A stretch of 64,000 nucleotides of DNA from IMG/VR virus record IMGVR_UViG_3300018080_000139, positions 31,868 through 95,867 of that record. One strand, 5' to 3'. Positions 1-29,893 of this stretch are shown here, piece by piece (position 1 is the stretch's first letter; each line of letters begins with the position of its first letter). The notes under the pieces are model-generated. The model was not told the DNA's origin. It made no database searches and saw only the letters and a list, made by a program, of their open reading frames with translations. Made by a program: the position numbers and the translations under genes. This DNA is from a virus.

Positions 1-3000
1 ATTCGGGATAAAGAGAGTCGCGGCGGTTATCTGGCCATTTTCGCGTCCGGGGCAACCTCACAGATCACGCGGCACACACCCAAACAAAATTTCGTTTCCC
101 TGAAAGACGGAACCCCGTTCAACTGGGGTTTCCCGCCGGAGGAAAAGAAGGCTCCGGCGTCGAAGGTTGTCTTGACTCCGGAGGGCAAAAGCCTGTCAGG
201 GGAAGTCCAGGACTTTCTTCAGAAAATCGACGAAAAGCAGAAAGTAGCTCTCTTGGTCGCCGCAATCCCAGAAATTTGGAGTAAAGCGAACGCTCGGGAC
301 TACAAAGAGGCAGTTTATCTCGAGGCTACCGGGGGAGACGATGAGGACTACTGGAGGCAGATAAGCAGGCTCGAGGAGCTGGGGGGGACCGATTCGCATG
401 GCGTGGTGACGGAATTCGGGGCCGAGGTGGTCAAAGGCATCACCGGCGGGAGGAGCCCGATTGAATTTCTACATTACAACAAGGGGGTAACGTGGCGGGT
501 GTCTCACTATTTCTACGGCGAGACCTTGCCTCCCCGGCTGGGCCCTGCGATTTTGGCGATCCTGCTTTCTCGCAGCAGTCCGCGCGACGAGTTCCAAAAA
601 ATGAAGTGGAGCATCGAGTGGGTGGAGTACGGGAACAAGTACTTGCGTGAGCAAAACCTCCTGGACTCCTCCAACAAATTGACTAAAGAGGGGATGTTTA
701 CGGCCTACGAGATTTTCGCCTCCGCGGGGACCAGCAAACTTTCGGAAATTCTTGCGAGGCTCGACCGGCAACTGCGTTTGGACTCAAAGCCAGGGCACGA
801 TTACGCCGTCGAAGTGGCGGCCCCTCCGGGGTCTTTCGAGATGGGCATGGGAAAAATGAAGCTTCGTAAGGGTTTCTCTTCCCCCGTTTCCGTAATGCGA
901 AAAAAAGAAGGGGAACTCCCCTTGCCGAAGGAACTGGAAGGGTTCAAGTTGTCCGGCAAGCTTGCAAGCGTGCCAAAGCTTGTGGCTCAGATGTTCCGAA
1001 TAAAGAGACCACTCAAGAAACGGAAAGAGATCTATGAGAAGCTGCATGTAATCTTGCGTGAGGAACTGGAAGACCGGCTCAACGACGCCGGTGTGCATTC
1101 GGCCTATTACGCCGGCGGGAAGATGTCCGATTACCGGGGTGGGGTTTACAGTGGGCTCCTCCGCGTCCTGACTCGTAAGGATGCGCTGGGAAAGCCGGAG
1201 ACCGAAAAAGATATATTGATGAATGCGCGTTCCGTGCTGTGGAGTGCGGAAAAGGCCCAAGCCATGGTGGACGATCTTATCGCAAAGTACGGCAAGAAAC
1301 AAAAGGAAGGCCTGGAGAGCATTTTGCCGCACGAGGAGCCGAAGTCCGTACCTCTCGCCGATGTCTTGAAGGCCTCGTACCTCAAGATAGTTGCCGGCCA
1401 ACCGTACTCGGCCGCGGTCTACCTGTCCGAACTGTTCCGGGAGGCCCGCAAGCTTAACGCTACCTTGTCCGTGGAAGAGTTCAAAAAAACAATCGAGGAC
1501 CTGGAAAAGCAGGTCGTAATCGACGCCGTTCCGGTGAACGATCGGACGATGGTGAAAAGTGGCGAGTACGCGATCACGCAGGCCGACGGAGGCATCATAG
1601 ACTTTATCATGTGGCGGGAGACAGCGCAAAAGCGGGCGCAAAAGTCTTCGGTTCCCCCGCAGACATCGAAAGAGCCGGAGCTTTCCAGGGAAGAACAGGT
1701 TGCCTTGCTCGTGCTGACGCTGAAGGCCTTAAATCCCATCCAAAAGAAGGAGAAGGCCTACCTGTACGGGCTTCCTCACGGCAAGTTCGAAGACACCCTT
1801 CTCTCTCTCAGGGAAAAGGGGTATGTCGCCCAGGGGACGAGCGCGAATACGGCCGGAAAAGACCGCGCCACAGCGATCGCGAAGGAACTCAAGGCGAAGG
1901 ACGCTATAGGCGCCCTCGAAAAGATCTCGGAGGCGCGACCGGACCTCTCTCCGACGGCCGCGGCCGTTTCTGCAATCGGCGCGCCTTCGCCAAAACTGGC
2001 GTCCGTGGGCAGCCTCTCGTGGGAGGAGAAAGTTGCGCTCCTGCTTATCTACTCGACGAAGGGGAGCGCGCGGCCCGGCGCTGGGGAGCGCATGGCCGGA
2101 CTCAAACGAGATGCCTTCTTTGCCGCTGAGAAGACTCTCATCGACAAAGGCTTTGCCCAGGCGGCTCCCGGGGAAAAATCGGCCCTCATGACCGAAGAAG
2201 GCGTCAAGGCCGTAGAGCGTATGATCGCCGATTCCGGGCTGCAATACGCCGAACAGCTCATCAAGCAGATGTCCCGAAAGGATGAGGGCCTGGAGTTCTC
2301 CCGGCGGAGCTATTCGGATCCGGAAGCCTTTCCCACATTGCACCGGCTTTACATCGAGGAAGCCGAAAAGCAACCCATGATGGCGGGAAATCTTACTATC
2401 TCAGAACTTTACGATGGCATGGTTGCCAAGGGCTTTTCGAATGACGTCGAAAAGTTTAAATCGGCTTTGCTCGGATGGATGAAGGAGCGAAAACTCACAC
2501 TCTGGGTGGTCGACTCTCCCCGCCTCGAGCCGAGATCGAAGACGGATGGCATACCCAGTGATCGGGGCCTTTTGTATTTTGTTCGGATGCCGCGCGAAGG
2601 CACCCCTGGCGCGCCGGCGCCGGCGCCATCGGCACCCACAAGTCAACCGACGGACCCCGACGCAAGCAAGCCTTCAGTTTCCGCAGCAAAGAAGAAGTAC
2701 ACTTTGGATTTCGATAAGGCCGGCGATAAACGGAAGAGTTTTCCATATGTTGCACGTCTGTTCCTCGACGACCGCGGGGCGGTGAAGCGGGACTTCAAGG
2801 ACCTCAATCGAGAGTATTTGGGAAAATATGATGTCCGCGTGTACGGTAGGTACACCGTGGAAGAGGGGGAGGTGCTGGAAATCCAAGAAGGGGAGGGATC
2901 GTGGAGAGATAAGGACCGGCATATTTACATCGTATTGGCCGGCGAAGAGCGTTACGTGGGGAAGGCGACAGACGTTAAAGTACATCGTCAGATCACAGAA

Positions 3001-3090
3001 TATTTGGGCGGCAAGATAGAAGTGGAAGATATTGCGTTTAAGAGGCCTCTTATACAACCACCACAGGAGGACCCCAGATTGGAAGATTAG
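1..3090 (+). CDS. Large multidomain protein with repeated winged-helix-like modules (5' truncated)
   Basis: Frame is open from base 1; repeated KVALL...L..KG...(L/M)TxxG modules and two xSEL(F/Y)...FK modules. Confidence 0.8.
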   Translation: MRDKESRGGYLAIFASGATSQITRHTPKQNFVSLKDGTPFNWGFPPEEKKAPASKVVLTPEGKSLSGEVQDFLQKIDEKQKVALLVAAIPEIWSKANARDYKEAVYLEATGGDDEDYWRQISRLEELGGTDSHGVVTEFGAEVVKGITGGRSPIEFLHYNKGVTWRVSHYFYGETLPPRLGPAILAILLSRSSPRDEFQKMKWSIEWVEYGNKYLREQNLLDSSNKLTKEGMFTAYEIFASAGTSKLSEILARLDRQLRLDSKPGHDYAVEVAAPPGSFEMGMGKMKLRKGFSSPVSVMRKKEGELPLPKELEGFKLSGKLASVPKLVAQMFRIKRPLKKRKEIYEKLHVILREELEDRLNDAGVHSAYYAGGKMSDYRGGVYSGLLRVLTRKDALGKPETEKDILMNARSVLWSAEKAQAMVDDLIAKYGKKQKEGLESILPHEEPKSVPLADVLKASYLKIVAGQPYSAAVYLSELFREARKLNATLSVEEFKKTIEDLEKQVVIDAVPVNDRTMVKSGEYAITQADGGIIDFIMWRETAQKRAQKSSVPPQTSKEPELSREEQVALLVLTLKALNPIQKKEKAYLYGLPHGKFEDTLLSLREKGYVAQGTSANTAGKDRATAIAKELKAKDAIGALEKISEARPDLSPTAAAVSAIGAPSPKLASVGSLSWEEKVALLLIYSTKGSARPGAGERMAGLKRDAFFAAEKTLIDKGFAQAAPGEKSALMTEEGVKAVERMIADSGLQYAEQLIKQMSRKDEGLEFSRRSYSDPEAFPTLHRLYIEEAEKQPMMAGNLTISELYDGMVAKGFSNDVEKFKSALLGWMKERKLTLWVVDSPRLEPRSKTDGIPSDRGLLYFVRMPREGTPGAPAPAPSAPTSQPTDPDASKPSVSAAKKKYTLDFDKAGDKRKSFPYVARLFLDDRGAVKRDFKDLNREYLGKYDVRVYGRYTVEEGEVLEIQEGEGSWRDKDRHIYIVLAGEERYVGKATDVKVHRQITEYLGGKIEVEDIAFKRPLIQPPQEDPRLED

Positions 3091-3350
3091 AAGCGGACAT
3101 CCGTGACTATTACACCAAAACTTATTGGGGACACAACGGCCAGCTGCGATTGAGTGAGTTGTGGCCTCATCTGGAAAGTTTGGGATACACACGAGAGTGG
3201 GCTAAACCGAAGGTGCTGGAGCTGAAGAACTCGGGGAAGCTTAGACTACGGGCTGCTATCAATATGTCAGGGCTGCAAGAAGCGGACATCATTCGGGAGC
3301 GTAACGAGATCTATTTTGCTCTGCAAATCCCGGATCTTATGGATTTCTAA
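3078..3350 (+). CDS. Single winged-helix-like domain, paralog of the C-terminus of 3367-4164; start uncertain
   Basis: ADIRDYYTKTY...IYFALQIPDL matches GDIRDFYSRTY...IYFALQIPDL; similarity begins upstream of the TTG at 3150. Confidence 0.7.
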   Translation: MGRLEADIRDYYTKTYWGHNGQLRLSELWPHLESLGYTREWAKPKVLELKNSGKLRLRAAINMSGLQEADIIRERNEIYFALQIPDLMDF

Positions 3351-3366
3351 GCAGAGGGAAGTTAGC

Positions 3367-4164
3367 ATGGAAGATTTGAAGAAGTTTTTCGAGGCCGAAC
3401 TGAGTTTAGACTTGCCTGGCTTTGCTCGACGCCGAAAAGAGTTTTGGGCCCGGATACGCAATGCTTGGGAGTCCTTCCCCTCCTTGGGCAGGGAAACCAT
3501 CAAAAAGATCGAGGATGAAACTAGAAAATTTGCGGACAAGGAAAAACATCCCGCGGCTAAAATAGCGGCGAAGATAGCTGGAATACGGGCTATACAAGGG
3601 CTGTGGGACATCGACGGCGGAGACGCTTGGCGGAAGCATCGAATCGAAAAATACAACCCCGTCGGGAGAGCGGAGATTTTGATTAGAAAAGAAGCGGGGA
3701 GCATACTGAGGGACGTTTTCGAGCTTGTCTACAACACACCACATCCAACTGGGAGCCGGGAGGCTATAGCATATAAAATCCCGCGTGACGCTCAGAAGGT
3801 AAAGCCTCTTTATCCAAAGTTCAGGACGGATTTCGTGGAACCAAAACCGCCAGGGCGCTCTCCCTCCTCGCCAACCCCTCGACCGAATAAACCTGCCTTG
3901 GATTTTGTTGGGGACATCCGGGACTTTTACTCACGGACTTACCGGGATCACCGAGGGCTAATGCTGCTATCCCAGGCTTTGGATTACGCCGAGAGGCGTT
4001 TAAAGCTTAATCGCGGCGACGCTAAAAAGTTGCTTCTGCAGTACACCAACCAAGGCAAGTTTCGCCTGGTAAAGGCGTTTGAGATTACCGGACTACAAGA
4101 AAAAGATGTGATCCGCGAGGGAGGCAAGATTTACTTCGCGCTCCAGATTCCGGACTTGCGGTAG
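3367..4164 (+). CDS. Hypothetical protein with C-terminal winged-helix-like domain
   Basis: ATG 3367 after GAGGGA; Pro-rich linker then paralogous domain. Confidence 0.8.
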   Translation: MEDLKKFFEAELSLDLPGFARRRKEFWARIRNAWESFPSLGRETIKKIEDETRKFADKEKHPAAKIAAKIAGIRAIQGLWDIDGGDAWRKHRIEKYNPVGRAEILIRKEAGSILRDVFELVYNTPHPTGSREAIAYKIPRDAQKVKPLYPKFRTDFVEPKPPGRSPSSPTPRPNKPALDFVGDIRDFYSRTYRDHRGLMLLSQALDYAERRLKLNRGDAKKLLLQYTNQGKFRLVKAFEITGLQEKDVIREGGKIYFALQIPDLR

Positions 4165-4172
4165 GAGGACTT

Positions 4173-4556
4173 ATGGAACCTGACATAAAGACGCTGAAAA
4201 AACTGGTGGAGGACTTCGACACCCTGTTTTCGTTTTTCACGCCACTTGCTCCGCAAAAGGCCGGGTCCTACATGCTTCAACTCAAGACGGCCGTCGGAGA
4301 GCCGGAGATGAAGCGGGCCTTGGACTATTACGCGCAGAAGTTCTCCTCCCCTTCTTCAGAAGAAATTCGTGACGCAGCCGAGAACGTCCGGACGTCGCTT
4401 GCTGTTCTCAACAAGCGCCTGGACCGGGCTTTCGACATCGTTTCTTCCAGGGCCTACGAGCGGGAGTACGAGGCCCGATATGGGGAGCCGCCGGCGGACG
4501 CTCGCTTCTCGAAAAAAATAAGAGAGGCTATTGACAGACTGACTTGTAGGGGATAG
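4173..4556 (+). CDS. Hypothetical protein
   Basis: AGGAGG RBS, tight packing. Confidence 0.75.
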   Translation: MEPDIKTLKKLVEDFDTLFSFFTPLAPQKAGSYMLQLKTAVGEPEMKRALDYYAQKFSSPSSEEIRDAAENVRTSLAVLNKRLDRAFDIVSSRAYEREYEARYGEPPADARFSKKIREAIDRLTCRG

Positions 4557-4560
4557 ACTT

Positions 4561-5070
4561 ATGATGGAAGACTTTAAACCGATCTTTTTCGAAAGCGCGC
4601 GCCGAAGTCTGACGGAAGACTACAAAGCCGAGAATACCAAGAATTTCGGGCGTGTGATGAACCTCGGCGCGAGCTTGGCGGCCGATTTTCGGGGGATCGC
4701 AAACTTACCAGAGGTGGCCGCCGAAGACAAAGGAGACTATCTGCAGGCCGCGGAAAAGCTGAAGCGTGTGGCGGCCGCGGAAAGCGAGTTTATCTTGGCA
4801 TTGGAGAGGCTGATGGAGGTTCACGGGATTCTTGTGGAAGAAGAAGACGACTTGTTTCGCTTTTCGAACCCGATAAAGAAGGCTTTCGGTTATGGTGGAA
4901 AAGACGAGCGCCCGGTTTTTTTCCCCAAACGTAAGAAAATTCTCGAGCGCATACGTAAAGGCCGCGACAGGATGATGGCGGCTTTTGTGCAGGGTGTGAG
5001 GTCGTGGGCAAAAGAAAAATACGACAGGTATGAGGACCTCCGCCCGGCCCCCCCTGGAGGATGGAGATGA
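4561..5070 (+). CDS. Hypothetical protein
   Basis: Operon packing, helical charged sequence. Confidence 0.75.
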   Translation: MMEDFKPIFFESARRSLTEDYKAENTKNFGRVMNLGASLAADFRGIANLPEVAAEDKGDYLQAAEKLKRVAAAESEFILALERLMEVHGILVEEEDDLFRFSNPIKKAFGYGGKDERPVFFPKRKKILERIRKGRDRMMAAFVQGVRSWAKEKYDRYEDLRPAPPGGWR

Positions 5071-5095
5071 CACGGGAAGCTTTTCCGCGGCGGTG

Positions 5096-5962
5096 ATGGA
5101 GCCAGCCCCTCTCGTTTTCAGTGGTGGTGGCTCGAAAGTGCCAATCCATGTCGGAGCGCTGCAGGCGGTCGAAGACGTTGGAGTTGAAGTCTCCTCCTAC
5201 TTGGGGACATCGGCCGGCGCGATCGTGGCCGCCCTGGCGGCCGACGGGATGAAAGCGCGGGAAATGTGGTCTCTTGTTCGTACTCTCGACTTTTCGAAGT
5301 TTGTGAAGAGGACCTGGCCGGAAGTGGTCGCTAATTTTTTCTTCGGCCGCGGTCTCGTGTCCGGAGCGTATCGCCATGATTTTTTTCGGGAGTTGTTCGG
5401 CATCAAGACTATGGCGGACTTGCGAAATCTTAAGGTTTTCGGGCATTCGCTGGCGCGGCGGCGATGGGTGGAAATCTCGGCGACCTCGTACCCGGGGATG
5501 CCGGTTGCCTTGGCTTTGCAGATTTCCACGGCAATTCCGATCCTGTTCAGCCCCGTTGGCATTGGCAAGGTCTCTCGGAAGACAAAGCGGGAATTCGACC
5601 GGGATTGGCTGGTTGATGGAGGGGTCTCCAAGAATTTTCCGGTCGATCGCGCTGGCCGTCGCTTTGTCGGTCATCTGATAGACTCACCGGAAGGCCCGGA
5701 TTGGCAGGACATCTCTGTGCGCTCACTATTTCGCGAGACGTTTTCTCAGCTTGTGGGCGCCAACGCCGAGGAGTCTATCCGTAACGCCAGCCCGAATGGG
5801 CTCGTTGTCCGCTCGACTTATCGAAAATCCGTAACCGATTTTTCGGTGAGCGCGCAGGAAAAAGAAAATATGTTTGATCTCGGTTACGCCGGGATGTCTG
5901 AAAGCTTGAAAATATGGCTCAAGGAGGAGTGTTATGATAAAAGGCCCGCAGAAGCCCGGTGA
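5096..5962 (+). CDS. Patatin-like phospholipase
   Basis: FSGGGSK oxyanion loop, GTSAG nucleophile elbow, DGG catalytic Asp; start could be as early as 5030. Confidence 0.92.
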   Translation: MEPAPLVFSGGGSKVPIHVGALQAVEDVGVEVSSYLGTSAGAIVAALAADGMKAREMWSLVRTLDFSKFVKRTWPEVVANFFFGRGLVSGAYRHDFFRELFGIKTMADLRNLKVFGHSLARRRWVEISATSYPGMPVALALQISTAIPILFSPVGIGKVSRKTKREFDRDWLVDGGVSKNFPVDRAGRRFVGHLIDSPEGPDWQDISVRSLFRETFSQLVGANAEESIRNASPNGLVVRSTYRKSVTDFSVSAQEKENMFDLGYAGMSESLKIWLKEECYDKRPAEAR

Positions 5963-6311
5963 CGCCCCGGTCAAAGCGCCGGCGGAAGACAGCGACGTCA
6001 AGCGAGACGGGAACCGCTTCATCGACGCGATTTTGGCCGCCATGCAAAAGCAGGTGGATGAAGACCTCGCTTCGATACGCGAGGAGATGAACGAGATGCG
6101 GAAGCAATTCGAGGATTTGAAGTCAGAGAACGCGACGAAGCGGACGGAGCTGCTCAAGCAAGTGGACGAGAAGAACGCGGCTGCGCGAAAAGACGTCGAC
6201 GACTCGATGGCACAGTATCAAACCTCGATAGACAACAGCGTTCAGGCCGTCGCGAATCTCGAGCGACGGCTGACAGGGCTGAAAGTGAGTCTCGAAGTCC
6301 CCTCGGCGTAA
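5934..6311 (+). CDS. Coiled-coil protein
   Basis: AAGGAGGAG RBS; heptad-rich charged sequence. Confidence 0.75.
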   Translation: MIKGPQKPGDAPVKAPAEDSDVKRDGNRFIDAILAAMQKQVDEDLASIREEMNEMRKQFEDLKSENATKRTELLKQVDEKNAAARKDVDDSMAQYQTSIDNSVQAVANLERRLTGLKVSLEVPSA

Positions 6312-6332
6312 AAGCAGTGAAGGAGGTTTGCC

Positions 6333-6776
6333 ATGGAGAACGGCGGAAACAAAGAGCCGGACAGCCAAATAAAAAGCCTGGAAGACTTGAAATCTGGAGT
6401 GGATGACGACCTTCCTAAGGGGGATCCAGACACTTACGTTCGTGAGTATCAAACGAAGACGCGAGAGGGACGCTGGACAACGCTTATCGAGACCGCGCGA
6501 GAGGGTGTGAAGATCACGAAGCGGATAAGCCGAACGCTCGACGAAATAAGCTCACGGCTTGAGTTCATGTCGGACCTGGGGGTTCTTCTGTGCGCCGTAA
6601 TGCTGGGGGCAAAGATCGTCACTCTCGGGATGGAGACAGTCACCGGCTGGACCGACGTCCTGTTCGCGCTGACTTGTACAATTATGTGGATGAACAACGG
6701 CGCGCGCCTTCCAAAATCCAAGACGGCCGTGGTCGCGAAGAAGATCAAGGACACCTTCACGAACTTGCAGGATTAG
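6333..6776 (+). CDS. Two-transmembrane protein (holin-like candidate)
   Basis: Two hydrophobic segments LGVLLCAVMLGAKIVTLG and VLFALTCTIMW, basic C-terminal tail. Confidence 0.65.
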   Translation: MENGGNKEPDSQIKSLEDLKSGVDDDLPKGDPDTYVREYQTKTREGRWTTLIETAREGVKITKRISRTLDEISSRLEFMSDLGVLLCAVMLGAKIVTLGMETVTGWTDVLFALTCTIMWMNNGARLPKSKTAVVAKKIKDTFTNLQD

Positions 6777-6789
6777 GATTGAGGTGGAA

Positions 6790-8304
6790 ATGCCCGAATT
6801 ATTATATCTCGACAAGTACGGGGAGAAGAAGACTCTCGAAGTCAAGGAGCGTGCGACAATCGGCACTTTCGACGACTGCGATGTGTGCTTGTCTTCCTCA
6901 GCGCTCGACGAAAGGCATGTTCTGATTTTCAGCGCGGAGTGTGGCTGGGAGGACGAATTTTCCGAGGCGGACGCCGGCAAGTACTTCGTGAAAAACGTGG
7001 GGTCCCGCCCTGTTTTCGTCCACCATGTAATCCGGAGAGCTAGCGAAGTGCTGGAGCCTGGAGCGAGATCAGGCCTGTCCGCAAAAGTTTCCATTTCGGT
7101 TGGGACTGCACGCGAGGGAGACCAGGTTACGGTCGTGTGGATGAATGCCGAAGCGGAATACGCCGACGAAGATTACCGGATTGTCCGGCTGAAAGCCAGC
7201 AGTGGAAAAGACGAGCTTCTCGATCTCGAGGTGCGAAGGCATCTCGAAAATTACTATCTGCGCTTGCGAGGGGTGGCCGCGAAGCCTGGGGATGTCGCGC
7301 GGGCGACGGCTCTTTTTCTGCGAGAGTCTTTCGACGTGTCCATGGCCGCCATCTATCGCCGGACCGGGCCGAAATGGAAGTCCGCGGCCGTGTCCCGGAG
7401 GCTGAAGAGCGATGAGTACGTACCGTCGACGACGATTTTCCGTCGGGCCATCGAGGAAAAGACGCCACTCCTCGTTCGTTTCGAAGACGGCGTGGTAAAA
7501 ATCGACGAAGAGGCCTCGACACCTTCGCTTTCCGTTGTGGCGTCGCCGGCAAAGCGCGCCGTACTAATCCCTCTCTTTCAGGGGGATAGCGTTTTCGGAA
7601 TGCTGTACTTGGACACGCGCGACGAGACCATCTTGACACAAAAGGACTATGACGTTCTGGTCCGGATGGTTCACCGCGGGGGGGTGGGAGCCGTTCTCGC
7701 CGGCTATCTCGCCGAGGACGCGGAGGCGAAGCAGTTTTTGCTTTTTCGGGATTCTCCACCGCGTGGTGAATACTGGCGTTACGTTTTCGCGGCGGAGAGG
7801 GCGCCTTACCCCCTTACGGGAGTTAAGGTTGACAAGGACCGCGGGATTATGCGCTTTCTTTTCGGACACGTTTCCGATAAGCTCTCTACGGTCTGCCGGG
7901 TCAAGAGCTTTTGCGCGGGGGCGATGGCCGCCGGCGTCGAGGATTTGCTCACCATCGCCACCAGGTACTCGGTTTCGATCGACGACTCCGTCGATCTGCT
8001 TAAAGCTGGGCTGTCGCACATAACAGTGGCTTTCCCGGATGAGGGGGATATACTCGACGACACGGACGCCGAGACGCGGACCGTTCGCGTCGGCCTTTTC
8101 GGGGACGTGTATGCCTACATGCGGAAAGACGGTAAGGTGTATGAGTTTCGAGACGACGAGGAAGGCTACAGGGATTTCGAATTCGCCGTCGGGGACTACT
8201 TGGTGATTTCTCTTCGCCGCATTCCCGATAGATTTCTCACCGATCGAGTCCGAGAGCTGAAAAAGCACAGTCGCGACTTCTTTTTGCTCGCAAGGGAGAG
8301 ATGA
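6790..8304 (+). CDS. FHA-GAF-degenerate PP2C/SpoIIE-like signalling protein
   Basis: N-terminal IGT..DCDVCL...ERH (FHA-like); STTIFRRAI...IPLF...GMLYLDT...DYDVL (GAF); C-terminal FGHVSDK and GDYLVI resemble SpoIIE motifs. Confidence 0.75.
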   Translation: MPELLYLDKYGEKKTLEVKERATIGTFDDCDVCLSSSALDERHVLIFSAECGWEDEFSEADAGKYFVKNVGSRPVFVHHVIRRASEVLEPGARSGLSAKVSISVGTAREGDQVTVVWMNAEAEYADEDYRIVRLKASSGKDELLDLEVRRHLENYYLRLRGVAAKPGDVARATALFLRESFDVSMAAIYRRTGPKWKSAAVSRRLKSDEYVPSTTIFRRAIEEKTPLLVRFEDGVVKIDEEASTPSLSVVASPAKRAVLIPLFQGDSVFGMLYLDTRDETILTQKDYDVLVRMVHRGGVGAVLAGYLAEDAEAKQFLLFRDSPPRGEYWRYVFAAERAPYPLTGVKVDKDRGIMRFLFGHVSDKLSTVCRVKSFCAGAMAAGVEDLLTIATRYSVSIDDSVDLLKAGLSHITVAFPDEGDILDDTDAETRTVRVGLFGDVYAYMRKDGKVYEFRDDEEGYRDFEFAVGDYLVISLRRIPDRFLTDRVRELKKHSRDFFLLARER

Positions 8305-9356
8305 TGCAGCCTACGCAGCAACCGGCTTTAGACGAGTTTCTGTCGACGGTAGACGCGATTGCTGGAGGAGACCACTCCCCGGACACGCTGCAAAAGATGT
8401 GCGTTCTGTGTTCGCCTGACTATGAGCCCACGCGCGAAGACAAGGTTCGATTGGGTGGCGAAGCGATTGTCCTAAAAGTATCAAATACTGTGCTTGATCG
8501 CGCAGAAGTATTAAAAATACCCCGACGCGCACTGGTCGAGAATAAGAGGCTTCTGGCACGGTATTTTCGGGGAATGCAACTGCAAAGCCGTGTCCACCGC
8601 TACGTTCGCGCCGGAGTCCCAGAAGTGTACGCAGCACGATATAATGCCCCGTTTGTCAGCATGGAGTGGATTCGCGGGCTGGCACTACTCCGCTTCCTCG
8701 AGCAAGCGGGCCAGCGAGAGTCCGCCCGGTTTTTTGTTAGCATCTTGGACTTGGTAGCCAGCCTGCATGATCGAATGGTGATTCATCGGGATCTTACACC
8801 CTCTAATATACTCGTGGGGGTGGATCCTGTAACGGAAGCTCTTTGCCCTTACCTTTTGGATTTCGGCCTCGCAAAGCGCGTGCAAGGCGAATCAACGCTT
8901 ACGGGAATTGGAGCAAAGCTGGGGACGAACGGCTGGGCGAGTCCGGACCAGCTCGATGATGCCGCGCGTGCTGATTTCCTGGACGACGTGTACACGGCGG
9001 GGCGTTTGCTCTACGTGATGGCTACTTATGCCACGACAAAAGCCTGTCCGCGGAAAGATCGCGATTATGACGAGCGGCTTTTACCTGGGGAGTGGCTTCC
9101 AATTTTTCAGGCGGCGACCGCTCCACGAGAGGCTCGCTACCAATCTATCAGGGAGCTTCGGGCTGCCGTCGCTCGTGTCGTGGGGATCGAGGACGTAAGT
9201 ATTGTTAGGGTGCCCGACCCCATTTCGGTTTTCTCAGAAGATCTACGGTCGACCAGAAAGATTCGGAAAGTTTCGCCCCCTCCCGAGAGTACGGAAGGGG
9301 ATGACCTCGTAGACCTTTTCGTAAAAGCGGTAAGGTCTGCAATTTATAACTCGTAG
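8301..9356 (+). CDS. Hanks-type Ser/Thr protein kinase
   Basis: VLKIP, MEWI, HRDLTPSNIL, DFGLAK, GTNGWASPDQ, DVYTAG. Confidence 0.93.
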   Translation: MMQPTQQPALDEFLSTVDAIAGGDHSPDTLQKMCVLCSPDYEPTREDKVRLGGEAIVLKVSNTVLDRAEVLKIPRRALVENKRLLARYFRGMQLQSRVHRYVRAGVPEVYAARYNAPFVSMEWIRGLALLRFLEQAGQRESARFFVSILDLVASLHDRMVIHRDLTPSNILVGVDPVTEALCPYLLDFGLAKRVQGESTLTGIGAKLGTNGWASPDQLDDAARADFLDDVYTAGRLLYVMATYATTKACPRKDRDYDERLLPGEWLPIFQAATAPREARYQSIRELRAAVARVVGIEDVSIVRVPDPISVFSEDLRSTRKIRKVSPPPESTEGDDLVDLFVKAVRSAIYNS

Positions 9357-9368
9357 GAGGGACGGCAA

Positions 9369-9977
9369 GTGACGATAGGAAATTACGGTTTGGAATTTAC
9401 TTTCACCAATGAAACGGACGGGATCGTGTCCGCCAATCAGCTCGGGATCCCCGGCCTGGCCCCGGGAGAGACGGTAACGATTTATGAAAACAAGTTGCGC
9501 CCGGGGCATTTCGGCATGGTCGATGGGGGGAAACTCTCGGTGTCTCCGGAGCTTCCCCCCGACCTCGTGACGCGCGCGGCGTCGCTGAACTGGCAGGACT
9601 CGGAGTGGAGGAAACTCCTCGAGATGCTGGCCGCCAGCAAAGACAGCCTGGCTTTCGCTTCGGACGCACCGGCCACCGCCGACGTCGACGCCGAAGTCGA
9701 GGTGGAGCTTTTCCTGCTCGACGCGGCGGGAGTACCGATCCTGCTCGACTCCGAAGAGGAAGTGGACATCAGCGTGGACACCGGGCTGATCGTGGACGTG
9801 TCCGGTTACGTGTCCGGAGACTTGAACGACGTCGGGCCGATTCGCGCGAAGTGCGCGTCCGGGCTTATCACGATCACCGTGACCGACGACGCGGCCGAAG
9901 CGCAAACGATTTCGCTCGCAAACCCGTCGACCGCCGGACTGACCGTCACCGACACGCACGTCGTAACTTACAGTTAA
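9369..9977 (+). CDS. Acidic beta-rich protein, possible virion/head decoration protein
   Basis: AGGAGG RBS; V/T/D-rich C-terminal half; upstream of head genes. Confidence 0.6.
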   Translation: MTIGNYGLEFTFTNETDGIVSANQLGIPGLAPGETVTIYENKLRPGHFGMVDGGKLSVSPELPPDLVTRAASLNWQDSEWRKLLEMLAASKDSLAFASDAPATADVDAEVEVELFLLDAAGVPILLDSEEEVDISVDTGLIVDVSGYVSGDLNDVGPIRAKCASGLITITVTDDAAEAQTISLANPSTAGLTVTDTHVVTYS

Positions 9978-9990
9978 TAGGGAGCGCGGG

Positions 9991-10341
9991 ATGATGACGA
10001 TTTCCGTCAAGGGGGCCGTGCAGGTAAAAAACGAGCAGGGGCGCGTCGAATACTCGGAGCTGCTGGCGAAGGATTTTTCTGTTGCTGAACACTATATTCG
10101 GCATTTGAAAATAGCCGCCGGCTCCATAGACGCCAACCTGGACTTGGGCGGGGTGAGCGACATCACTTTCGCCCTGATCCTCTCTGATCTGCCCGTGGCC
10201 CCGAAAATAAACGGAGCCCTGTCGGCTCTCCCGGCCGGAAACATGTTTGTTTTCAGCGGATCGACGGGAAGCTACATCACAGACATTAAGCTGTCGAACG
10301 CGGCCGGCACGGACGCTAACTTGCGCGTTATTTTGGGGTAA
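9991..10341 (+). CDS. Small beta-rich protein, possible virion protein
   Basis: RBS, packing, alternating hydrophobic pattern. Confidence 0.65.
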   Translation: MMTISVKGAVQVKNEQGRVEYSELLAKDFSVAEHYIRHLKIAAGSIDANLDLGGVSDITFALILSDLPVAPKINGALSALPAGNMFVFSGSTGSYITDIKLSNAAGTDANLRVILG

Positions 10342-10345
10342 TGCC

Positions 10346-10627
10346 ATGAGTAGCAGCTTGACATATTACTACTACCTACAGGCCTTCCCGTACCCCCGCG
10401 CGGGATCGTATCCTCGGAGACCGCGAGACGAGGCGTTCGAGGAGAAAGTGGATCGTCCAATGTCCCCCAGCGCCAGAATGATAAATGAGAATTTGGCGAC
10501 GACCAAGGGGGCTATGCTGTGGTGGTATTGGGGGCTCGGTGCTTATCCGTACCCGACCGCCGGGCAATACAACAAGAAGAAAAAAAAGAAGCGAAAGGGG
10601 ATAAGCCCATGGGACTCGCTAACGTAA
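10346..10627 (+). CDS. Small aromatic/basic protein with internal repeat
   Basis: AFPYPRAGSY / AYPYPTAGQY repeat, poly-Lys; fills the gap between flanking genes. Confidence 0.55.
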   Translation: MSSSLTYYYYLQAFPYPRAGSYPRRPRDEAFEEKVDRPMSPSARMINENLATTKGAMLWWYWGLGAYPYPTAGQYNKKKKKKRKGISPWDSLT

Positions 10628-11019
10628 AAGTGGGGGGCTTCGCGTTCAAGGCGGACGTGGAGTTCAACGCGGACCCGCGCCAGAATATCGCATACATCTT
10701 GAAGATTTTGGGCGAGCCGGCGAGCAAGCTGTATCCGTCAGTGCCTTCGAACTCAGCCCCCCCTCCCGGACGCGGTTTGCAGTTCGACGTCCGCCCGGAG
10801 AGTGGGGACCCGATTCCCGGCGGCGTGGGCTTGCGCGCTGTCGGAATTCGCGAAGTCGTTACGGCTCCGCCGGGGGCGCTGGGGATTAACGATCCTTTCC
10901 CGGAGGATTACGGGACCCTCGAGGTTTTCGATCCGAACGACTCGGGCTACGAAGCCCCGTATCCTAATGACAGGTTTCCTTCAACCCCTCCGGAGCTTCC
11001 GGAAAAGACGTTTCCGTAA
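10609..11019 (+). CDS. Pro-rich hypothetical protein
   Basis: ATG 10609 after AAGGGG. Confidence 0.65.
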   Translation: MGLANVKVGGFAFKADVEFNADPRQNIAYILKILGEPASKLYPSVPSNSAPPPGRGLQFDVRPESGDPIPGGVGLRAVGIREVVTAPPGALGINDPFPEDYGTLEVFDPNDSGYEAPYPNDRFPSTPPELPEKTFP

Positions 11020-11028
11020 GGGGGGAAT

Positions 11029-11280
11029 TTGCTCGAGACAAAGATTTTTCCACCGAAAGATGCGGAGGCCTATGACTTCCATCGCGAGGCGTACTCGCCT
11101 TTTGTCAAGGTCTCTCTGCCTGGGGGCGGCGATGAGTACTCGTTGCTGTGGGAAGAGTTCGTCTCGTGGTTTCGTCGCGTGTGCCCGGCCTATTGGCCGC
11201 GCGATCGCGCGCAAACATATCTTTTCAACTTTCGAAAGTTGCGGTTTTTCCTTGAGACTCAGGATTTTATACCGCTGTAA
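11029..11280 (+). CDS. Hypothetical protein
   Basis: RBS AAGGGGG, packing. Confidence 0.6.
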   Translation: MLETKIFPPKDAEAYDFHREAYSPFVKVSLPGGGDEYSLLWEEFVSWFRRVCPAYWPRDRAQTYLFNFRKLRFFLETQDFIPL

Positions 11281-11292
11281 AGGAGAAAAATC

Positions 11293-11553
11293 ATGCCTAC
11301 CGGAATGGTTCGCGACTTGAAAATCATCCCGTCGCGTAAAGAGAACGGGAATGTCGACATCACCACGCCGCACGGAGACGAGATGGACGCCGTCTTCTCG
11401 GGCACTCCGGCCGCCGCCGCCGAATATCTCGTGGACAACCACGGGTTGACATTGCAGGCGGCTCAGGAGTGGATAGCCCGGGCGCGTGAGGTTCGAGGCA
11501 TCACGAAAGGCGTGGGATACACGCAGGTACACCCCGCCGTAGGCCTCGGCTAA
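11293..11553 (+). CDS. Hypothetical protein
   Basis: AAGGAG RBS. Confidence 0.65.
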   Translation: MPTGMVRDLKIIPSRKENGNVDITTPHGDEMDAVFSGTPAAAAEYLVDNHGLTLQAAQEWIARAREVRGITKGVGYTQVHPAVGLG

Positions 11554-11563
11554 CGGCGGCGGC

Positions 11564-13381
11564 GTGATGACTACGACAACGCCGAAATGGTTTCTCTACG
11601 ACTCGGTTCTACTGGATTACTCCATTACCGAGAGCGCTGAAGGGCTCTTGATTTTGCGCGGGAAGGTGCAGCACGCCGACATAAAAAACGACAACAACCG
11701 GGTGTATCGTTACTCCGTGCTGGACAAGGTTTTGAAAGCGCAAAAGGTAAGAGACCGGCTGCGTCGGCGTCTCATGGTCGGGGAGCTGGAGCATCCTGAA
11801 GACGGCATCACGAAATTCTATCGAGTTTCGCATCTGGTGACGGATCTCCGTTGGGGAGAGGGAAAGGTCGTCTTGGGCTCCTTCGAGATTTTCGATGACG
11901 TTCCGCATGGAATAATCGTGGCGCGCCTGATCCGTCGGGGGGTTCCTGTGGGAGCCTCCACGCGCGGGAAGGGGACGTCTCACGAGCAGGATGACGTCGA
12001 ATTCGTGGACGACAACTATGATCTGGAGACGGTCGACATTGTCTACAACCCTTCGACTCCGGGAGCGTACCCCAAGCCCGTGAAAGTTGCCATGTCCGGG
12101 GAACTTCCGACCTGGGAGCGAGATGAGGAGAAGACATCCAGAAAACTCGTGAGCCTGGCCGATGATGCGGGTCGGGTTCGCGTGGCCGCTTCACGCGGAA
12201 AAGCTAGCGATGAGGAGATACGGCGTTGTGAGAGGGACCTCTCGGGGGTGTCCGGACATGGCGACGCGCTCCTCGAGAAGTTTTGTGAGTTAATCAACAG
12301 GGACTTGAAGGAGGCCAGAAAAATGGCGAAAAGCAAGTTGACCGTCCCCGTCCAAGCGGTGAGCCAGATGATAGAGGCGATCCGGTCAGACGAGGAGGAA
12401 TACAAACCCCCCACCGAGGAGCGAAAGAAGCGGCGTAAGACCGAGCAGGAGGGGGACGAGTACGAAGAGCGGAAAAAGCGCCGGCGCAAATCGGAGCAGG
12501 CCGAATACGAAGACGAGTACGAAGAGCAAGATGACGAAGAAGGCTTGGACGACGAGGAGTACGAAGAGCGCAAGCGGCGTCGGAAAATGGAGGCGAAGAA
12601 GAAACGCCAGCGCAAATCGGAGCAGGCCGAATACGAAGACGAGTATGAGGAGCAAGATGACGAAGAAGGCTTGGACGACGAGGACGAGTACGAGGAGCAG
12701 GACGAGCCCGAAGAGGAGTACGAAGAGCAGGACGACGAAGAAGAAAAGCCCGCTCCTCCTCCCCCCGTCGAAAAGAAAAGCTTTCTCTCTCGCAAGGAGA
12801 GGAAATGCGAATCCGCCGGCGTGCTGAGAAAGGCTCTCGTCCGCGAGCGCAAGCTCAAAAACGCGCTCGTCGAGCGCGCGCGTCAGCTTCGCGCGGCAAA
12901 CTCCGTGTTGGCGTCGAAGCTCGACAGCTCTGTGGACTTGATCGCAAAAGTGGTCGAGCGGGTGGAGGCGGAGAAAAAGCGCCGTATCCTCTCGCGGGCG
13001 ACGGCCGAAAACCCGGAGATGGGAAATCTGCTCCCGGTGCTGGAGCGGTGCAGCGCACGCGAACTCGAAGAGGCTGTCCGTTTGGTGCAGGAAAGCAGGG
13101 AAACCAAAATGCGGGAAGAGGAAAGCCGTCGTCAGGAGGAAGCAGCTCGACGTACCCCGCCTTCGCGCAGAAGGTACACACCGCCGCCGGCCAGAACGCG
13201 AGAACTGATGGTCGAATCTCAGGATCTCCCCGCCGAGGACCTTCCGAAAAAGCAAGTGAAGGAAAACAAACTGTCTTTGGGAAGGATTCTCGAGGAGAGC
13301 CGCCACGGGGCGGATAGCGACTATTCGCGAATGGCCGATAACCTGATCGACGGCGGGCACCTTCCGCCCGGATGGATGTAG
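11564..13381 (+). CDS. Prohead protease (T4 gp21-like) fused to acidic/coiled-coil scaffolding region
   Basis: NDNNRVY, GELEHP, RVSH, GASTRGKG, DIVYNPSTPGAYP; directly upstream of the capsid gene. Confidence 0.9.
   Translation: MMTTTTPKWFLYDSVLLDYSITESAEGLLILRGKVQHADIKNDNNRVYRYSVLDKVLKAQKVRDRLRRRLMVGELEHPEDGITKFYRVSHLVTDLRWGEGKVVLGSFEIFDDVPHGIIVARLIRRGVPVGASTRGKGTSHEQDDVEFVDDNYDLETVDIVYNPSTPGAYPKPVKVAMSGELPTWERDEEKTSRKLVSLADDAGRVRVAASRGKASDEEIRRCERDLSGVSGHGDALLEKFCELINRDLKEARKMAKSKLTVPVQAVSQMIEAIRSDEEEYKPPTEERKKRRKTEQEGDEYEERKKRRRKSEQAEYEDEYEEQDDEEGLDDEEYEERKRRRKMEAKKKRQRKSEQAEYEDEYEEQDDEEGLDDEDEYEEQDEPEEEYEEQDDEEEKPAPPPPVEKKSFLSRKERKCESAGVLRKALVRERKLKNALVERARQLRAANSVLASKLDSSVDLIAKVVERVEAEKKRRILSRATAENPEMGNLLPVLERCSARELEEAVRLVQESRETKMREEESRRQEEAARRTPPSRRRYTPPPARTRELMVESQDLPAEDLPKKQVKENKLSLGRILEESRHGADSDYSRMADNLIDGGHLPPGWM
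12484..12684 (+). repeat. Two 75-nt direct repeats (12484-12558, 12610-12684) encoding RKSEQAEYEDEYEEQDDEEGLDDE
   Basis: Near-identical copies, two synonymous mismatches. Confidence 0.9.
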
Positions 13382-13419
13382 ACGACGCGCTACAAAGCGC
13401 AAAACGAAAGGAGAAAAGC

Positions 13420-14856
13420 ATGTTGATGCCACAGATAGAGGGGGTCCCCCCCATTGCCAACCTGGCGGAAAATCTCCAGATGGGCGGCCAGACAATCCTG
13501 GAACGCACCCAGGAGAAGGGAGCCAAGCTCGCCGCCGAGGATTGGAGTCACCTTTGCCGCCGCCTCCCGAAAAACATGCGGTGGCGAACCGCCATCCTGC
13601 TGGAAAACACGAAGTCTTACTTCAAGAACTTCAACGAGACCGTGCGCCAGCAAGCAATCGGGAACTTCGACAAGTTCGCCTTCCCGCTGATCCGGGCCAT
13701 ATACCCGAACCTGGTGGCCCAGGAACTCGTTTCCGTACAGCCCATGACCGGGCCCATCTCCCTGATTTTCTATCTCGACGCTTTGTACGGCTCGAACAAG
13801 GGGAGCGTCCAGGCGGGACAGGCCGCGTTCGATGCGGTCTCCGGCCCCAACGAAAACCCGTCTTACAGCTCCGAAGACGTCGAGCTGGAGCCGCTCGGCG
13901 CCGGCGACGACGCGGAGACGAACTTCACGGGAAACGTAGGATACACCCCCATATACCAGGGGACTGTGCAGGTGGCCGCCGGCGATGTCGTTGGTTGGGA
14001 CGATGGGGACGGCAACATAACCGGAACCGGGATTGCGGCGGGAAGCATCGACTACGACACCGGAGCCTACGACATCACTTTCTCTGTGGCCCCGGTGGGC
14101 GGGACGATCATCACGGCCTCGTACCGTTTCGACATGGAAGGCTCGGAACTGGTGCCGCAAATGGACATCGGGATGGTCTCCACCCCTGTCGTTGCCCAGC
14201 ACCACAAGCTGAGAATCCGCTGGTCGATCGAGGCTCAGGCTTCGGCCAGATCCCTCCACGGCCTGGACGCGCAAAGTGAACTCATGGCATTCACGGCGGA
14301 GGAACTCAAATTCGAAATCGACCGCCGTGTCATAAGGGACTTGTACAACATCGCCCTCGCCGGACACGTTTTCTGGCAGATCACCCAGCCGGCCGGCGTG
14401 AGCTTTACCGAACACAAGCTGTCTTACATCGACGCTTTGATCGAGCTGGGCAACTTGATTTTCCGTGCAACTCGGCGTGGGAACATGAATTTCATCGTGA
14501 CGTCCGTGGAGGTGGCAAATATCATCGAAAGCCTCCCCACTTTCGTCGCCGAGCCGAACGCTTTTTCGGTCCAGAGGACGGCGGGCGTGGTCAAGGTCGG
14601 CGTGCTCAACAACAGGTGGACCGTCTACAAAGACCCCTTCCTCGGTAACGGACAGCCGAACCCGAGAGTGTTTTTCGGCGGCTACAAAGGCGGGAGCTGG
14701 ATGGACGCCGGCTATGTCTTCGCTCCGTATCTCCCCCTGTACACGACTCCTACGATCTTTTTGGATGACTTCTTGGGGAGGAAAGGTTTGGGCATCGCCT
14801 ACGGAAAAAAGACGATCAACCCCAGATTTTACGGCACCGGCGAAGTCACCGCGTGA
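13420..14856 (+). CDS. Major capsid protein (T4 gp23 family)
   Basis: TAILLEN, PLIRAIYPNLVA.ELVSVQPMTGP, EIDR.VI, GYKG..W.DAGYVFAPY.PL. Confidence 0.95.
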   Translation: MLMPQIEGVPPIANLAENLQMGGQTILERTQEKGAKLAAEDWSHLCRRLPKNMRWRTAILLENTKSYFKNFNETVRQQAIGNFDKFAFPLIRAIYPNLVAQELVSVQPMTGPISLIFYLDALYGSNKGSVQAGQAAFDAVSGPNENPSYSSEDVELEPLGAGDDAETNFTGNVGYTPIYQGTVQVAAGDVVGWDDGDGNITGTGIAAGSIDYDTGAYDITFSVAPVGGTIITASYRFDMEGSELVPQMDIGMVSTPVVAQHHKLRIRWSIEAQASARSLHGLDAQSELMAFTAEELKFEIDRRVIRDLYNIALAGHVFWQITQPAGVSFTEHKLSYIDALIELGNLIFRATRRGNMNFIVTSVEVANIIESLPTFVAEPNAFSVQRTAGVVKVGVLNNRWTVYKDPFLGNGQPNPRVFFGGYKGGSWMDAGYVFAPYLPLYTTPTIFLDDFLGRKGLGIAYGKKTINPRFYGTGEVTA

Positions 14857-20597: not shown

Positions 20598-20608
20598 GGA
20601 GGTAAATT

Positions 20609-21190
20609 ATGCCTATAACTCCAATGACGAGCAATCATCTCGCCTCTCAGCTCGGAACCTTCGAGCCTCAGCGGCGAAACCACTATCAAATCCGATTTTT
20701 CTTGGGCAACTTCCTGGATGAGGAAATGCTCACACTCGGAATCGTCGGAGGCTTCATGCCGTCCGAGGGCAATGAGGAAATTCAGATCCCGCACAAGAAC
20801 GAAGACGTTTGGGTGGCCGGACGGCGAACGCTCGAAAGCGGAACGATCCGCGTTCGCGATTACGTCGACCGCGAAACGCTGGCGGCCATCCTCCGTTGGC
20901 GCCAGCAAGTCTACAATCCTTTGACGGGCGGCGTGGGCTTCGCAAGCCTCTACAAAAAATCCGGGGAAATTCTGCTCACGGCTCCGGATGGAATCAGCAA
21001 CGAACGCATTTGGCAACTTATCGGGTGCTGGCCGACGCAGGCGAACCCCGGGGAGCTGGCCGACGACCAGAACGATGTCGTCGTTGCCGACGTCACGATC
21101 CGATTCGACAAAGCCATTCCGCTTTTTGCAATCTCGGCGGAATCGAGTTTGGCCGCTTCGATTCCTTCGGTAGCCGGCGGCCTGGTCTAA
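20609..21190 (+). CDS. Tail tube protein (gp19 family)
   Basis: FEPQRRNHY, W.LIGCWP, TIRFD; follows sheath. Confidence 0.9.
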   Translation: MPITPMTSNHLASQLGTFEPQRRNHYQIRFFLGNFLDEEMLTLGIVGGFMPSEGNEEIQIPHKNEDVWVAGRRTLESGTIRVRDYVDRETLAAILRWRQQVYNPLTGGVGFASLYKKSGEILLTAPDGISNERIWQLIGCWPTQANPGELADDQNDVVVADVTIRFDKAIPLFAISAESSLAASIPSVAGGLV

Positions 21191-21215
21191 AAAGTAAACA
21201 GAAAGGAAGTCTGCC

Positions 21216-22007: not shown

Positions 22008-22164
22008 GCAGTTCAACCTGATCCACCATTCAGGTTTTGATTATGGATCTCTGGAGAACATGCCGACGCCCGAGCGCCGGTTTTTCCACAAAACGCTGGT
22101 CGACCTGCTCGAAAAACAGAAAAACGAAATTGAGCGGGCGGCCGCAAAAAGGAGCAAAGGGTAA
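21958..22164 (+). CDS. Small baseplate assembly protein (T4 gp51-like); start 21958 or 21985
   Basis: ENMPTPERRFF motif; between gp26-like gene and tape measure. Confidence 0.7.
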   Translation: MSFFAQSVDMYRSVLFEQFNLIHHSGFDYGSLENMPTPERRFFHKTLVDLLEKQKNEIERAAAKRSKG

Positions 22165-22168
22165 ATAG

Positions 22169-25020: not shown

Positions 25021-25367
25021 GCCGGCGCCTACTTCTAAGCGCAAACAGCAGGTATCAACTCACTCCGTATTTCTCGCGCCGAATCTCTGAGAAAACCCCA
25101 TCGACAGGAAGCGTCCAGTTTTTTGGAACCTTTGTAGCACCGGAAATATCTCCAGGAAACGACGACGCACTATACACCATGCGCGAAAGCGACAACGGCC
25201 GCCTCGATCTCGTAGCGTACAGGTATTATGGGACTTCGGAGCTGTGGTGGGTTATCGCGCTCGTGAACGGGATTGCTGATCCCCTGCAAGGGGTGGACGC
25301 CGGGACAGTCCTCACCATCCCCCGGCTTAAGAAAGTGTTTTCCGCGCTCACGGAAGGGGAGTTCTGA
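25017..25367 (+). CDS. LysM-like baseplate wedge protein (gp53/P2 X-like)
   Basis: RLDLVAYRYYGTSELWWVIALVN...GTVLTIP. Confidence 0.88.
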   Translation: MSRRLLLSANSRYQLTPYFSRRISEKTPSTGSVQFFGTFVAPEISPGNDDALYTMRESDNGRLDLVAYRYYGTSELWWVIALVNGIADPLQGVDAGTVLTIPRLKKVFSALTEGEF

Positions 25368-27636: not shown

Positions 27637-27645
27637 GGAGGCGAA

Positions 27646-28050: not shown

Positions 28051-28055
28051 GAAAT

Positions 28056-29846: not shown

Positions 29847-29893
29847 GGATTTTTCGGATTTTACTCTATCCTGGATAGAGGAGGGATTTTTTC

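Follow-up and report, generated by a model that had tools for sequence, protein, structure and literature searches.

We analyzed two overlapping genes carried on a 64,000-nucleotide stretch of viral DNA (termed the window), which corresponds to bases 31868-95867 of IMG/VR record IMGVR_UViG_3300018080_000139, a linear sequence of 95,867 bp with a CheckV completeness of 63%. The first gene encodes a protein, P0001, that is predicted to combine an FHA domain, a GAF domain, and a domain with the fold of PPM/PP2C phosphatases, and the second encodes a Ser/Thr kinase of the Hanks type, P0002 (Table 1). We prefer the ATG at position 6790 as the start of the first gene, with GAGGTGG located 5' of it and a GTG at 6784 as an alternative; the N terminus of P0001, MPELLYLD, agrees with the N-terminal consensus of the protein family described below. 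The TGA stop codon of this gene (8302-8304) overlaps the ATG of the kinase gene (8301-8303) in the sequence ATGA, and a Shine-Dalgarno-like run, AAGGGAGAG, lies at 8292-8300, just 5' of the kinase start. An ATGA overlap with a ribosome-binding site (RBS) upstream is a classic arrangement for translational coupling. An initial annotation, made from the sequence alone, had described two genes joined in this way upstream of the head genes; both open reading frames (ORFs) are indeed present, followed by genes for the head maturation protease, the major head protein, and the tail sheath, and every motif that the annotation quoted was found in the sequence (IGT, DERH, GHVSDKL, and GDYLVISLRR in P0001; RYFRGMQ, HRD..N, DFG, and SPDQ in P0002).

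Table 1. Features of the gene pair and of the virion genes in the window (positions are those of the window; aa, amino acids)
Feature	Position	Strand	Basis
Gene 1 (P0001), predicted FHA-GAF-PPM-fold protein, 504-506 aa	6790..8304	+	ORF; RBS-like GAGGTGG; AlphaFold2; nine full-length relatives
FHA-like domain, residues 1-120	6784..7143	+	Pfam FHA in family, CHFR alignment
GAF domain, residues ~143-312	7210..7719	+	Pfam GAF, Foldseek
Predicted PPM/PP2C-fold domain, SpoIIE/RsbU type, residues ~325-506	7756..8301	+	AlphaFold2 domain model, Foldseek, VIA-align
Gene 2 (P0002), Hanks-type Ser/Thr kinase, 351 aa	8301..9356	+	Pfam, PHROG, PDB matches
Translational-coupling junction, AAGGGAGAG then ATGA stop/start overlap	8292..8304	+	Sequence read directly
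Head maturation protease	11564-13381		PHROG
Major head protein	13372-14856		PHROG
Adaptor and neck proteins			PHROG matches
Tail sheath	18729-20597		PHROG
Tape measure	22169-24304		PHROG
Baseplate wedge	28056-29846		PHROG
Portal	45426-47114		phrog_213, E value of 4.6e-31

When P0001 was scanned by itself with Pfam, GAF (E value of 0.0045; 17.9 bits for a cut-off of 22.4) and FHA (E value of 0.067; 14.1 bits for a cut-off of 20.7) both remained below threshold, and nothing was detected in the C-terminal third of the protein. AlphaFold2 supplied with the family alignment gave a three-domain model with a mean predicted local distance difference test score (pLDDT) of 78, the N-terminal beta domain reaching 83 to 94. 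Pfam FHA matches 6 of the 11 family members (best E value, 6.9e-6), and in HMMER the family profile aligned residue by residue with the FHA domain of CHFR (E value of 0.008). Similarly, Pfam GAF_2 matches 7 of the 11 members, and the modeled GAF domain was matched by Foldseek to phytochrome GAF and GAF-only structures with E values of 2e-8 to 7e-7.

The 187 C-terminal residues, modeled alone, reached a pLDDT of 81.3 and a predicted template modeling score (pTM) of 0.81. Among the matches listed by Foldseek against the PDB at an E value of 1e-3 or below, all had the PPM fold (best E value, 1.1e-5), and nearly all of those listed were PPM phosphatases (PstP, tPphA, SpoIIE, RsbX, RssB, and Stp1). 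VIA-align, run against representatives, placed the RsbU domain of Rv1364c first (3ke6_B; Z score of 15.3, root mean square deviation of 2.6 Å over 167 residues); the best 37 chains were all PPM (37/37), after which scores fell to a Z of 6.7, and among these 37 were Pseudomonas aeruginosa RssB (Z of 13.8) and TAB1 (Z of 9.7). AlphaFold2, Foldseek, and VIA-align together recover all three folds of the FHA-GAF-SpoIIE-like layout first read from the sequence, and the C-terminal domain, for which that reading depended on a PPM fold, is predicted to have one. The Pfam SpoIIE model (PF07228) itself had no match in the record at an E value of 10 or below and none in scans of the 11 family members. According to the language-model features of the ESM Atlas, bacterial FHA/GAF/SpoIIE proteins with a length of about 550 aa make up 27 of the 30 nearest clusters (score of 0.94), in agreement with the FHA-GAF-SpoIIE-like layout read in the initial annotation. 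The BFVD library of viral structures gave matches to one domain at a time (FHA, GAF, or PPM) and none to more than one of the three.

We then compared the functional residues of these domains. At the G+1 position of the FHA domain, P0001 has Thr (IGT), and the family has T, Y, S, F, W, K, or N, never Arg, next to the invariant Gly27. The Ser of the SxxH motif is replaced by Asp in P0001 (DERH) and in most members and by C, N, or E in the rest. The HMMER alignment with the CHFR domain places the family G+1 residue under the canonical Arg and the family Asp under the canonical Ser. Structural residues of the FHA domain are retained, namely the His in 9 of 11 members and Asn71 in 10 of 11.

In the PPM-like domain, the motif-II Asp would fall where the third strand ends, ahead of the first long helix; this site holds His362 in P0001 (GHVSDKL) and F, Y, T, I, or S in eight relatives. 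The Asp of the TDG motif is absent: P0001 reads GDYLVISLRR and its relatives read GDFxxxSP, with Pro or other residues following the strand and no conserved Asp after it. The only conserved Asp residues of the domain are D471 and D498, which are invariant in an alignment of seven sequences (A2). D471 is the structural "GD" of SpoIIE-type enzymes; D498 (R/K-D-F), at the start of the last strand, is replaced by Asn in P0127 and otherwise kept in the full-length members (8 of 9), and it was assigned by the register of motifs and secondary structure. Of the four canonical acidic positions, three hold non-acidic residues throughout the relatives. Loss of the phosphothreonine- and metal-binding residues, as claimed in the initial annotation, is thus present in P0001, and most of the substitutions are common to all nine full-length relatives. 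As far as can be judged from these residues, the FHA domain of P0001 would be unable to bind phosphothreonine in the canonical way, and the PPM domain would be unable to hold the canonical two-metal center. The family retains Pro343, Gly361, GD471, D498, and R504, which we take to be scaffold residues of the SpoIIE family consensus, and this retention therefore argues for descent from a SpoIIE-type phosphatase rather than for convergence.

The protein might still be a phosphatase with a noncanonical active site, acting as an ordinary antagonist of the kinase, since its PPM fold is preserved, D471 and D498 recur in 8 of the 9 full-length relatives, and most relatives share a YGxCGxDL motif. The non-acidic residues at three of the four canonical positions speak against such an activity, as do the silence of Pfam SpoIIE even at an E value of 10 and the sequence of P0001, which lacks even the Cys of the family motif (GHVSDKL). 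We regard a residual phosphatase as very improbable.

When 1.84 billion cluster representatives were searched exhaustively with HMMER, nine full-length relatives of P0001 (483 to 534 aa, 21 to 33% identity) were found, together with two shorter proteins with FHA and GAF only and a fragment identical to P0001. The two shorter proteins, P0132 (360 aa) and P0133 (341 aa), have no PPM-like domain at all. Mean pairwise identity is 0.26 for the PPM-like domain, 0.31 for FHA, and 0.32 for GAF. Seven columns are invariant in all 11 sequences, and the GAF domain, which holds five of them (R205, P263, G272, Y275, and G300), looks like the functional core of the family because of this share and because the two short relatives keep only FHA and GAF. 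The nine relatives are intact and similar in length, and the identity of their PPM-like domain is near that of FHA and GAF; from these sequences, the family is therefore best described as conserved and noncatalytic and not as a decaying copy, and the neutral decay that the initial annotation had considered as a counterargument is not seen.

The family is rare (nine clusters among the 1.84 billion representatives) and, so far, found in metagenomes only. With P0001 as the query, neither a word-indexed search of 5.8 billion proteins nor a phmmer search of PDB sequences (E value of 10 or below) returned a match, and tblastn with P0001 and P0131 found no match among 50,697 GenBank phages. Pattern scans for the family recovered no relatives in IMG/VR (P0001, P0123, P0127, P0129, and alignment A5), in JGI metagenome contigs (P0128 and P0124), or in 185,579 GTDB species genomes (P0131 and A5); these scans require exact short peptides, so that absence from them is weak evidence. 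A hidden Markov model of alignment A1, run over the loci examined, matched only the first gene of the window itself.

P0002 matches the Pfam Pkinase model (E value of 4.5e-15; 56.2 bits for a cut-off of 31.7) and the phage kinase family phrog_2361 (E value of 1.3e-22), and its nearest solved structures are Staphylococcus aureus Stk1, StkP, and PknB (E values of 2e-13 to 1e-10). Its sole close relative among the 5.8 billion proteins is P0004 (with P0142 in the same cluster), with 39% identity. A search with a profile of the P0002/P0004 alignment found no further member of this subfamily; in IMG/VR, pattern scans based on P0004 returned only generic kinases, mostly from giant viruses, and those based on alignment A6 returned nothing. 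Among GenBank phages, 21 of the 50,697 records match P0002, all with less than 30% identity. The first 46 residues of the kinase (8301-8440) form an N-terminal extension with a motif common to P0002 and P0004, (M/L)Q(K/E)(M/L)C(V/E)LC..P.Y.

We aligned P0002 and P0004 with 16 bacterial kinases (18 sequences in total). The beta3 Lys (K72), H162-R163-D164, N169, and D187-F188-G189 are invariant columns of this alignment. At the position of the alphaC Glu, P0002 has Gly90 (RYFRGMQ) and P0004 also has Gly (RFFRG), whereas the other 16 kinases have Glu or Asp, and the alignment with Stk1 concurs. The Gly-rich loop of P0002 is reduced to LGGEAIV, with the same LGGEA in P0004, and the catalytic-loop Lys is Thr166 in P0002 (HRDLTPSN), whereas P0004 retains HRDIKPDN. 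In the APE region, P0002 has SPD (SPDQ), compared to SPEQ in P0004, and it retains a Thr-rich activation segment and a GT...SP(D/E)Q P+1 region. The alignment bears out what the initial annotation had read in the kinase (HRD..N and DFG kept, Gly for the alphaC Glu, SPDQ for APE) and adds to it the change of the catalytic-loop Lys to Thr and the reduced Gly-rich loop. Because P0004 also has Gly in place of the alphaC Glu, the loss of this Glu is a conserved trait of the subfamily; the Lys-to-Thr change, in contrast, is private to the phage of the window. Judged by the residues normally considered (Lys, HRD Asp, and DFG Asp), P0002 should be active, although it lacks the salt bridge typical of the active conformation.

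Both proteins could instead be catalytically dead scaffolds, with P0002 being a pseudokinase and the pair acting by binding only. Such a role would fit Gly90 in both subfamily members, Thr166 in P0002, the degenerate Gly-rich loop, and SPD for APE. However, the residues whose loss usually identifies pseudokinases (the beta3 Lys, the HRD Asp, and the DFG Asp) are intact, together with the Asn, and P0004 keeps a complete HRDIKPDN. Moreover, degenerate Gly loops occur in other aligned bacterial kinases, and two of these have Ser at the position of the catalytic-loop Lys. We consider such a dead pair distinctly unlikely.

As to whether the two proteins form a unit, P0123 (the best relative of P0001) and P0142 (a member of the cluster of the kinase relative) each occur on two Logan contigs, of which the longest has 10,996 bp, and the two probably share a contig. 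This is one circumstantial case for conservation of the pair elsewhere. A complex predicted from both full-length sequences and their alignments had a median interface score (ipSAE) of 0.37 (0.37, 0.41, and 0.14 in the individual runs), compared to 0.00 for the best control; the partner had a pLDDT of no less than 68, and 34% or more of the contacts agreed between runs. Of 80 solved complexes, 58 reach the mark applied here, as do 2 of 110 mismatched pairs, and scores of 0.60 or below comprise only 7 of the 80 solved complexes and both of the passing mismatches. The association of partner and kinase suggested by the initial annotation thus passed this mark weakly; the prediction was graded as weak support and is not counted as evidence of binding.

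We tentatively propose that P0001 is a pseudo-enzyme that descends from a bacterial FHA-GAF-SpoIIE phosphatase and is produced with the kinase as its regulatory or sensor subunit, and that the kinase, possibly activated by this partner, phosphorylates host or phage proteins; this proposal could well be right, and we hold it with some reserve. Translational coupling would ensure that P0001 is made together with the downstream kinase. A cue, either a small molecule or a protein, would be sensed by the GAF domain. The FHA-like and PPM-like domains, having lost phospho-recognition and catalysis, would have kept the ancestral surfaces that face kinases and phosphoproteins and would dock the kinase or its substrates. 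The kinase, which lacks the alphaC Glu, would need docking of the partner to reach its active conformation, and the active pair would phosphorylate host or phage proteins during infection. By analogy with the T7 kinase (T7K), host takeover or antidefense is the natural guess for the downstream purpose. The roles put forward in the initial annotation (rewired host signaling, a block on kinase-based defense, or the timing of lysis) would likewise be conjectural for this pair. A stronger version, which we regard as doubtful, is a phage-specific two-protein holoenzyme, in which a triple-"dead" FHA-GAF-PPM scaffold allosterically switches on a Hanks kinase devoid of the alphaC Glu when the GAF domain reads its ligand, as a signal-gated weapon for host phosphorylation or antidefense. 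Targeting of the pair to the capsid as injected cargo was set aside; the N terminus of P0001 is the conserved first strand of the FHA domain.

Several observations weigh against this proposal. The partner family has at least nine clusters, compared to two for the kinase subfamily (one besides P0002), and in the search with the P0002/P0004 profile, no kinase was listed on a contig size-matched to those of other partner-family members; pairing may therefore not be general across the family. The PPM-like domain, judging from P0132 and P0133, is dispensable in some lineages. The PPM catalytic positions were assigned from the motif register and from the strand-helix boundaries of the models, not from a residue-level structural alignment; hhalign of the family with Escherichia coli PphC gave a probability of 2% and no usable residue register, and D498 may be one surviving metal ligand. 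Finally, a kinase that has lost the alphaC Glu might instead simply be weak or inactive.

The unequal spread of the two families bears on two further points. The initial annotation had proposed that the phage captured a kinase/phosphatase module from its host and made the phosphatase noncatalytic; the loss of the canonical residues supports the second part, whereas capture as a pair from the host is not borne out, given subfamilies of two and at least nine clusters. Any capture would be old, because the substitutions are family-wide. The same disparity would also fit a P0001 that acts independently of the phage kinase, either as a decoy or inhibitor docking on host Hanks kinases, FHA partners, or PPM substrates or as a GAF-based binder of a host signaling nucleotide, with P0002 being a separate takeover or antidefense enzyme of the T7 gp0.7 kind. 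The existence of relatives with FHA and GAF only, the rank of GAF as the best-conserved region, and the T7 precedent of a phage kinase that broadly counters defenses, as described in PMC13645617, are in line with an independent role. This alternative, which we find unlikely, has to contend with the ATGA coupling, which speaks for stoichiometric coproduction, with the probable presence of P0123 and P0142 on one contig, and with the lack of an identifiable host target.

The genomic setting identifies the contig as that of a large tailed, myovirus-like phage, and it appears to be of the lytic type. The plus strand holds nearly all genes from the left edge of the window to about 48 kb, and helicases beyond 50 kb, recognized by PHROG matches, lie on the minus strand. 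The gene pair is part of this 48-kb codirectional block, which includes the virion structural genes, and lies 2.2 kb upstream of the head protease gene within a tightly packed run of unnamed genes that sits 3' of two giant ORFs and includes a patatin-like phospholipase gene. The G+C content around the pair (0.57) is in keeping with that of the rest of the window, so that the pair bears no mark of recent insertion. A scan of positions 3000 to 12000 for promoters and terminators found none exceeding shuffled sequences.

Within the run, the patatin gene (5030-5962; Pfam E value of 7e-27), 0.8 kb upstream of the pair, overlaps a gene for a 125-aa coiled-coil protein, which is followed by a 147-aa ORF and then by the FHA-GAF-PPM gene (region 5030-6776). 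The patatin has one PADLOC match, a weak one to a generic phospholipase effector (E value of 2.9e-5). This neighborhood is relevant to a different role for the pair, as a phage-carried exclusion or abortive-infection module directed against competing phages, with the kinase as an effector (as in Stk2 and PD-T4-6) that is restrained or triggered by the FHA-GAF-PPM-like sensor. Besides the patatin gene, the best PADLOC matches of the kinase would agree with it: these are PD-T4-6 models (E value of 1.9e-28), with further matches to Stk2 (E value of 1.2e-11), mad6, and MkoA; the PD-T4-6 and Stk2 matches extend over the generic kinase domain only. However, the PD-T4-6 models are profiles of bacterial Hanks kinases, and with a match confined to the kinase domain, any bacterial-type kinase would score. 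Furthermore, P0001 and seven neighbors have no PADLOC match, the patatin and the coiled-coil gene have weak matches only, and the pair lies in the structural-gene block of an apparently lytic-type contig and not in a prophage moron or a defense island. An exclusion module therefore seems improbable to us.

Other features of the region are recorded here in passing. The two adjacent giant ORFs directly 5' of the cassette (2,422 and 2,579 aa; window positions 1-3090 and continuing upstream, record positions 19962-34957) have only weak matches, to winged helix-turn-helix (wHTH)-phosphoribosyltransferase (PRTase)-associated, EarA-like, and HEAT models, and are possibly repeat-built DNA-binding or virion-internal proteins. 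The interval between the kinase and protease genes (9369-11553) holds four or five small ORFs (202, 116, ~166, and 86 aa) without a Pfam, PHROG, or PADLOC match. The protease ORF has 605 aa, and its PHROG match is limited to residues 23 to 364; the extended region C-terminal to this match may represent a scaffold fused to the protease or some other domain. The portal gene is located downstream of the tail and baseplate genes, about 32 kb past the protease and capsid genes, which is an unusual order for a head module (43450-47114), and a 659-aa ORF 5' of the portal gene, with no PHROG match, is possibly the terminase.

We compared the proposed kinase-regulator pair with known systems. The bacterial FHA-GAF-SpoIIE (PP2C-type) phosphatases, of about 540 to 570 aa and common in Acidobacteriota, Zixibacteria, and Planctomycetota, resemble P0001 in their domains, domain order, and length; unlike them, the phage family has no Pfam SpoIIE match, and none of its members has the Arg and Ser of FHA or the motif-II and TDG Asp residues of PPM. 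In the PknB-PstP-FhaA/FhaB and PpkA-PppA-Fha modules, a kinase, a PPM fold, and an FHA domain stand side by side, as in the phage pair. However, the phosphatase and FHA proteins of those modules are functional and separate, whereas the phage counterparts are joined to a GAF domain in one protein and no longer have their canonical functional residues, and the phage kinase has no membrane or sensor domains.

Two proteins illustrate how a PPM fold can serve without catalysis. TAB1 binds and activates TAK1 and p38alpha. Two papers treat it as a pseudophosphatase (PMC8622459) and as the regulatory subunit of TAK1 (PMC3245275). TAB1, a structural match of P0001, resembles it in the role proposed here, a PPM fold that acts without catalysis as a kinase-binding regulatory subunit, and by analogy it would be the closest functional counterpart of P0001; it is, however, eukaryotic and has neither FHA nor GAF, and binding of P0001 to the kinase is inferred only. 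E. coli RssB, composed of a receiver and a PPM-like domain, is an adaptor for the degradation of RpoS. It is a bacterial precedent for a PPM-fold domain that works as an adaptor and not as an enzyme, although RssB has a different N-terminal module, has no kinase partner, and is not phage encoded.

Phage-encoded Ser/Thr kinases like P0002 include T7 gp0.7 (T7K) and the members of phrog_2361. T7K shows that such enzymes can serve host takeover and antidefense (PMC13645617); a text search of this paper found no pseudophosphatase partner. It represents a distinct lineage, with a DPV motif in place of DFG, whereas P0002 has DFG. Phage kinases, bacterial FHA-GAF-SpoIIE phosphatases, and PPM pseudophosphatases are each already known separately. 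Neither our literature searches nor BFVD yielded an account of a triple-degenerate FHA-GAF-PPM family that is conserved and phage borne, or of the coupling of such a family to a kinase lacking the alphaC Glu.

What sets this locus apart is that three signaling domains of a common bacterial phosphatase architecture appear to retain their folds without the chemistry canonical for them, and that the gene encoding them is coupled here to that of a kinase without a hallmark activation residue. To our knowledge, kinase regulation by pseudo-enzymes is well established in eukaryotes, and hardly any cases have been described in bacteria or phages. Should the doubtful holoenzyme prove true, the TAB1-TAK1 type of pseudophosphatase-activated kinase would for the first time have an analogue in bacteria or phages. 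If the two proteins work together, they would be an example of phages repurposing the phospho-signaling parts of their hosts and a compact model for partner-dependent kinase activation, and they would add to the recent evidence for phage kinases as antidefense tools.

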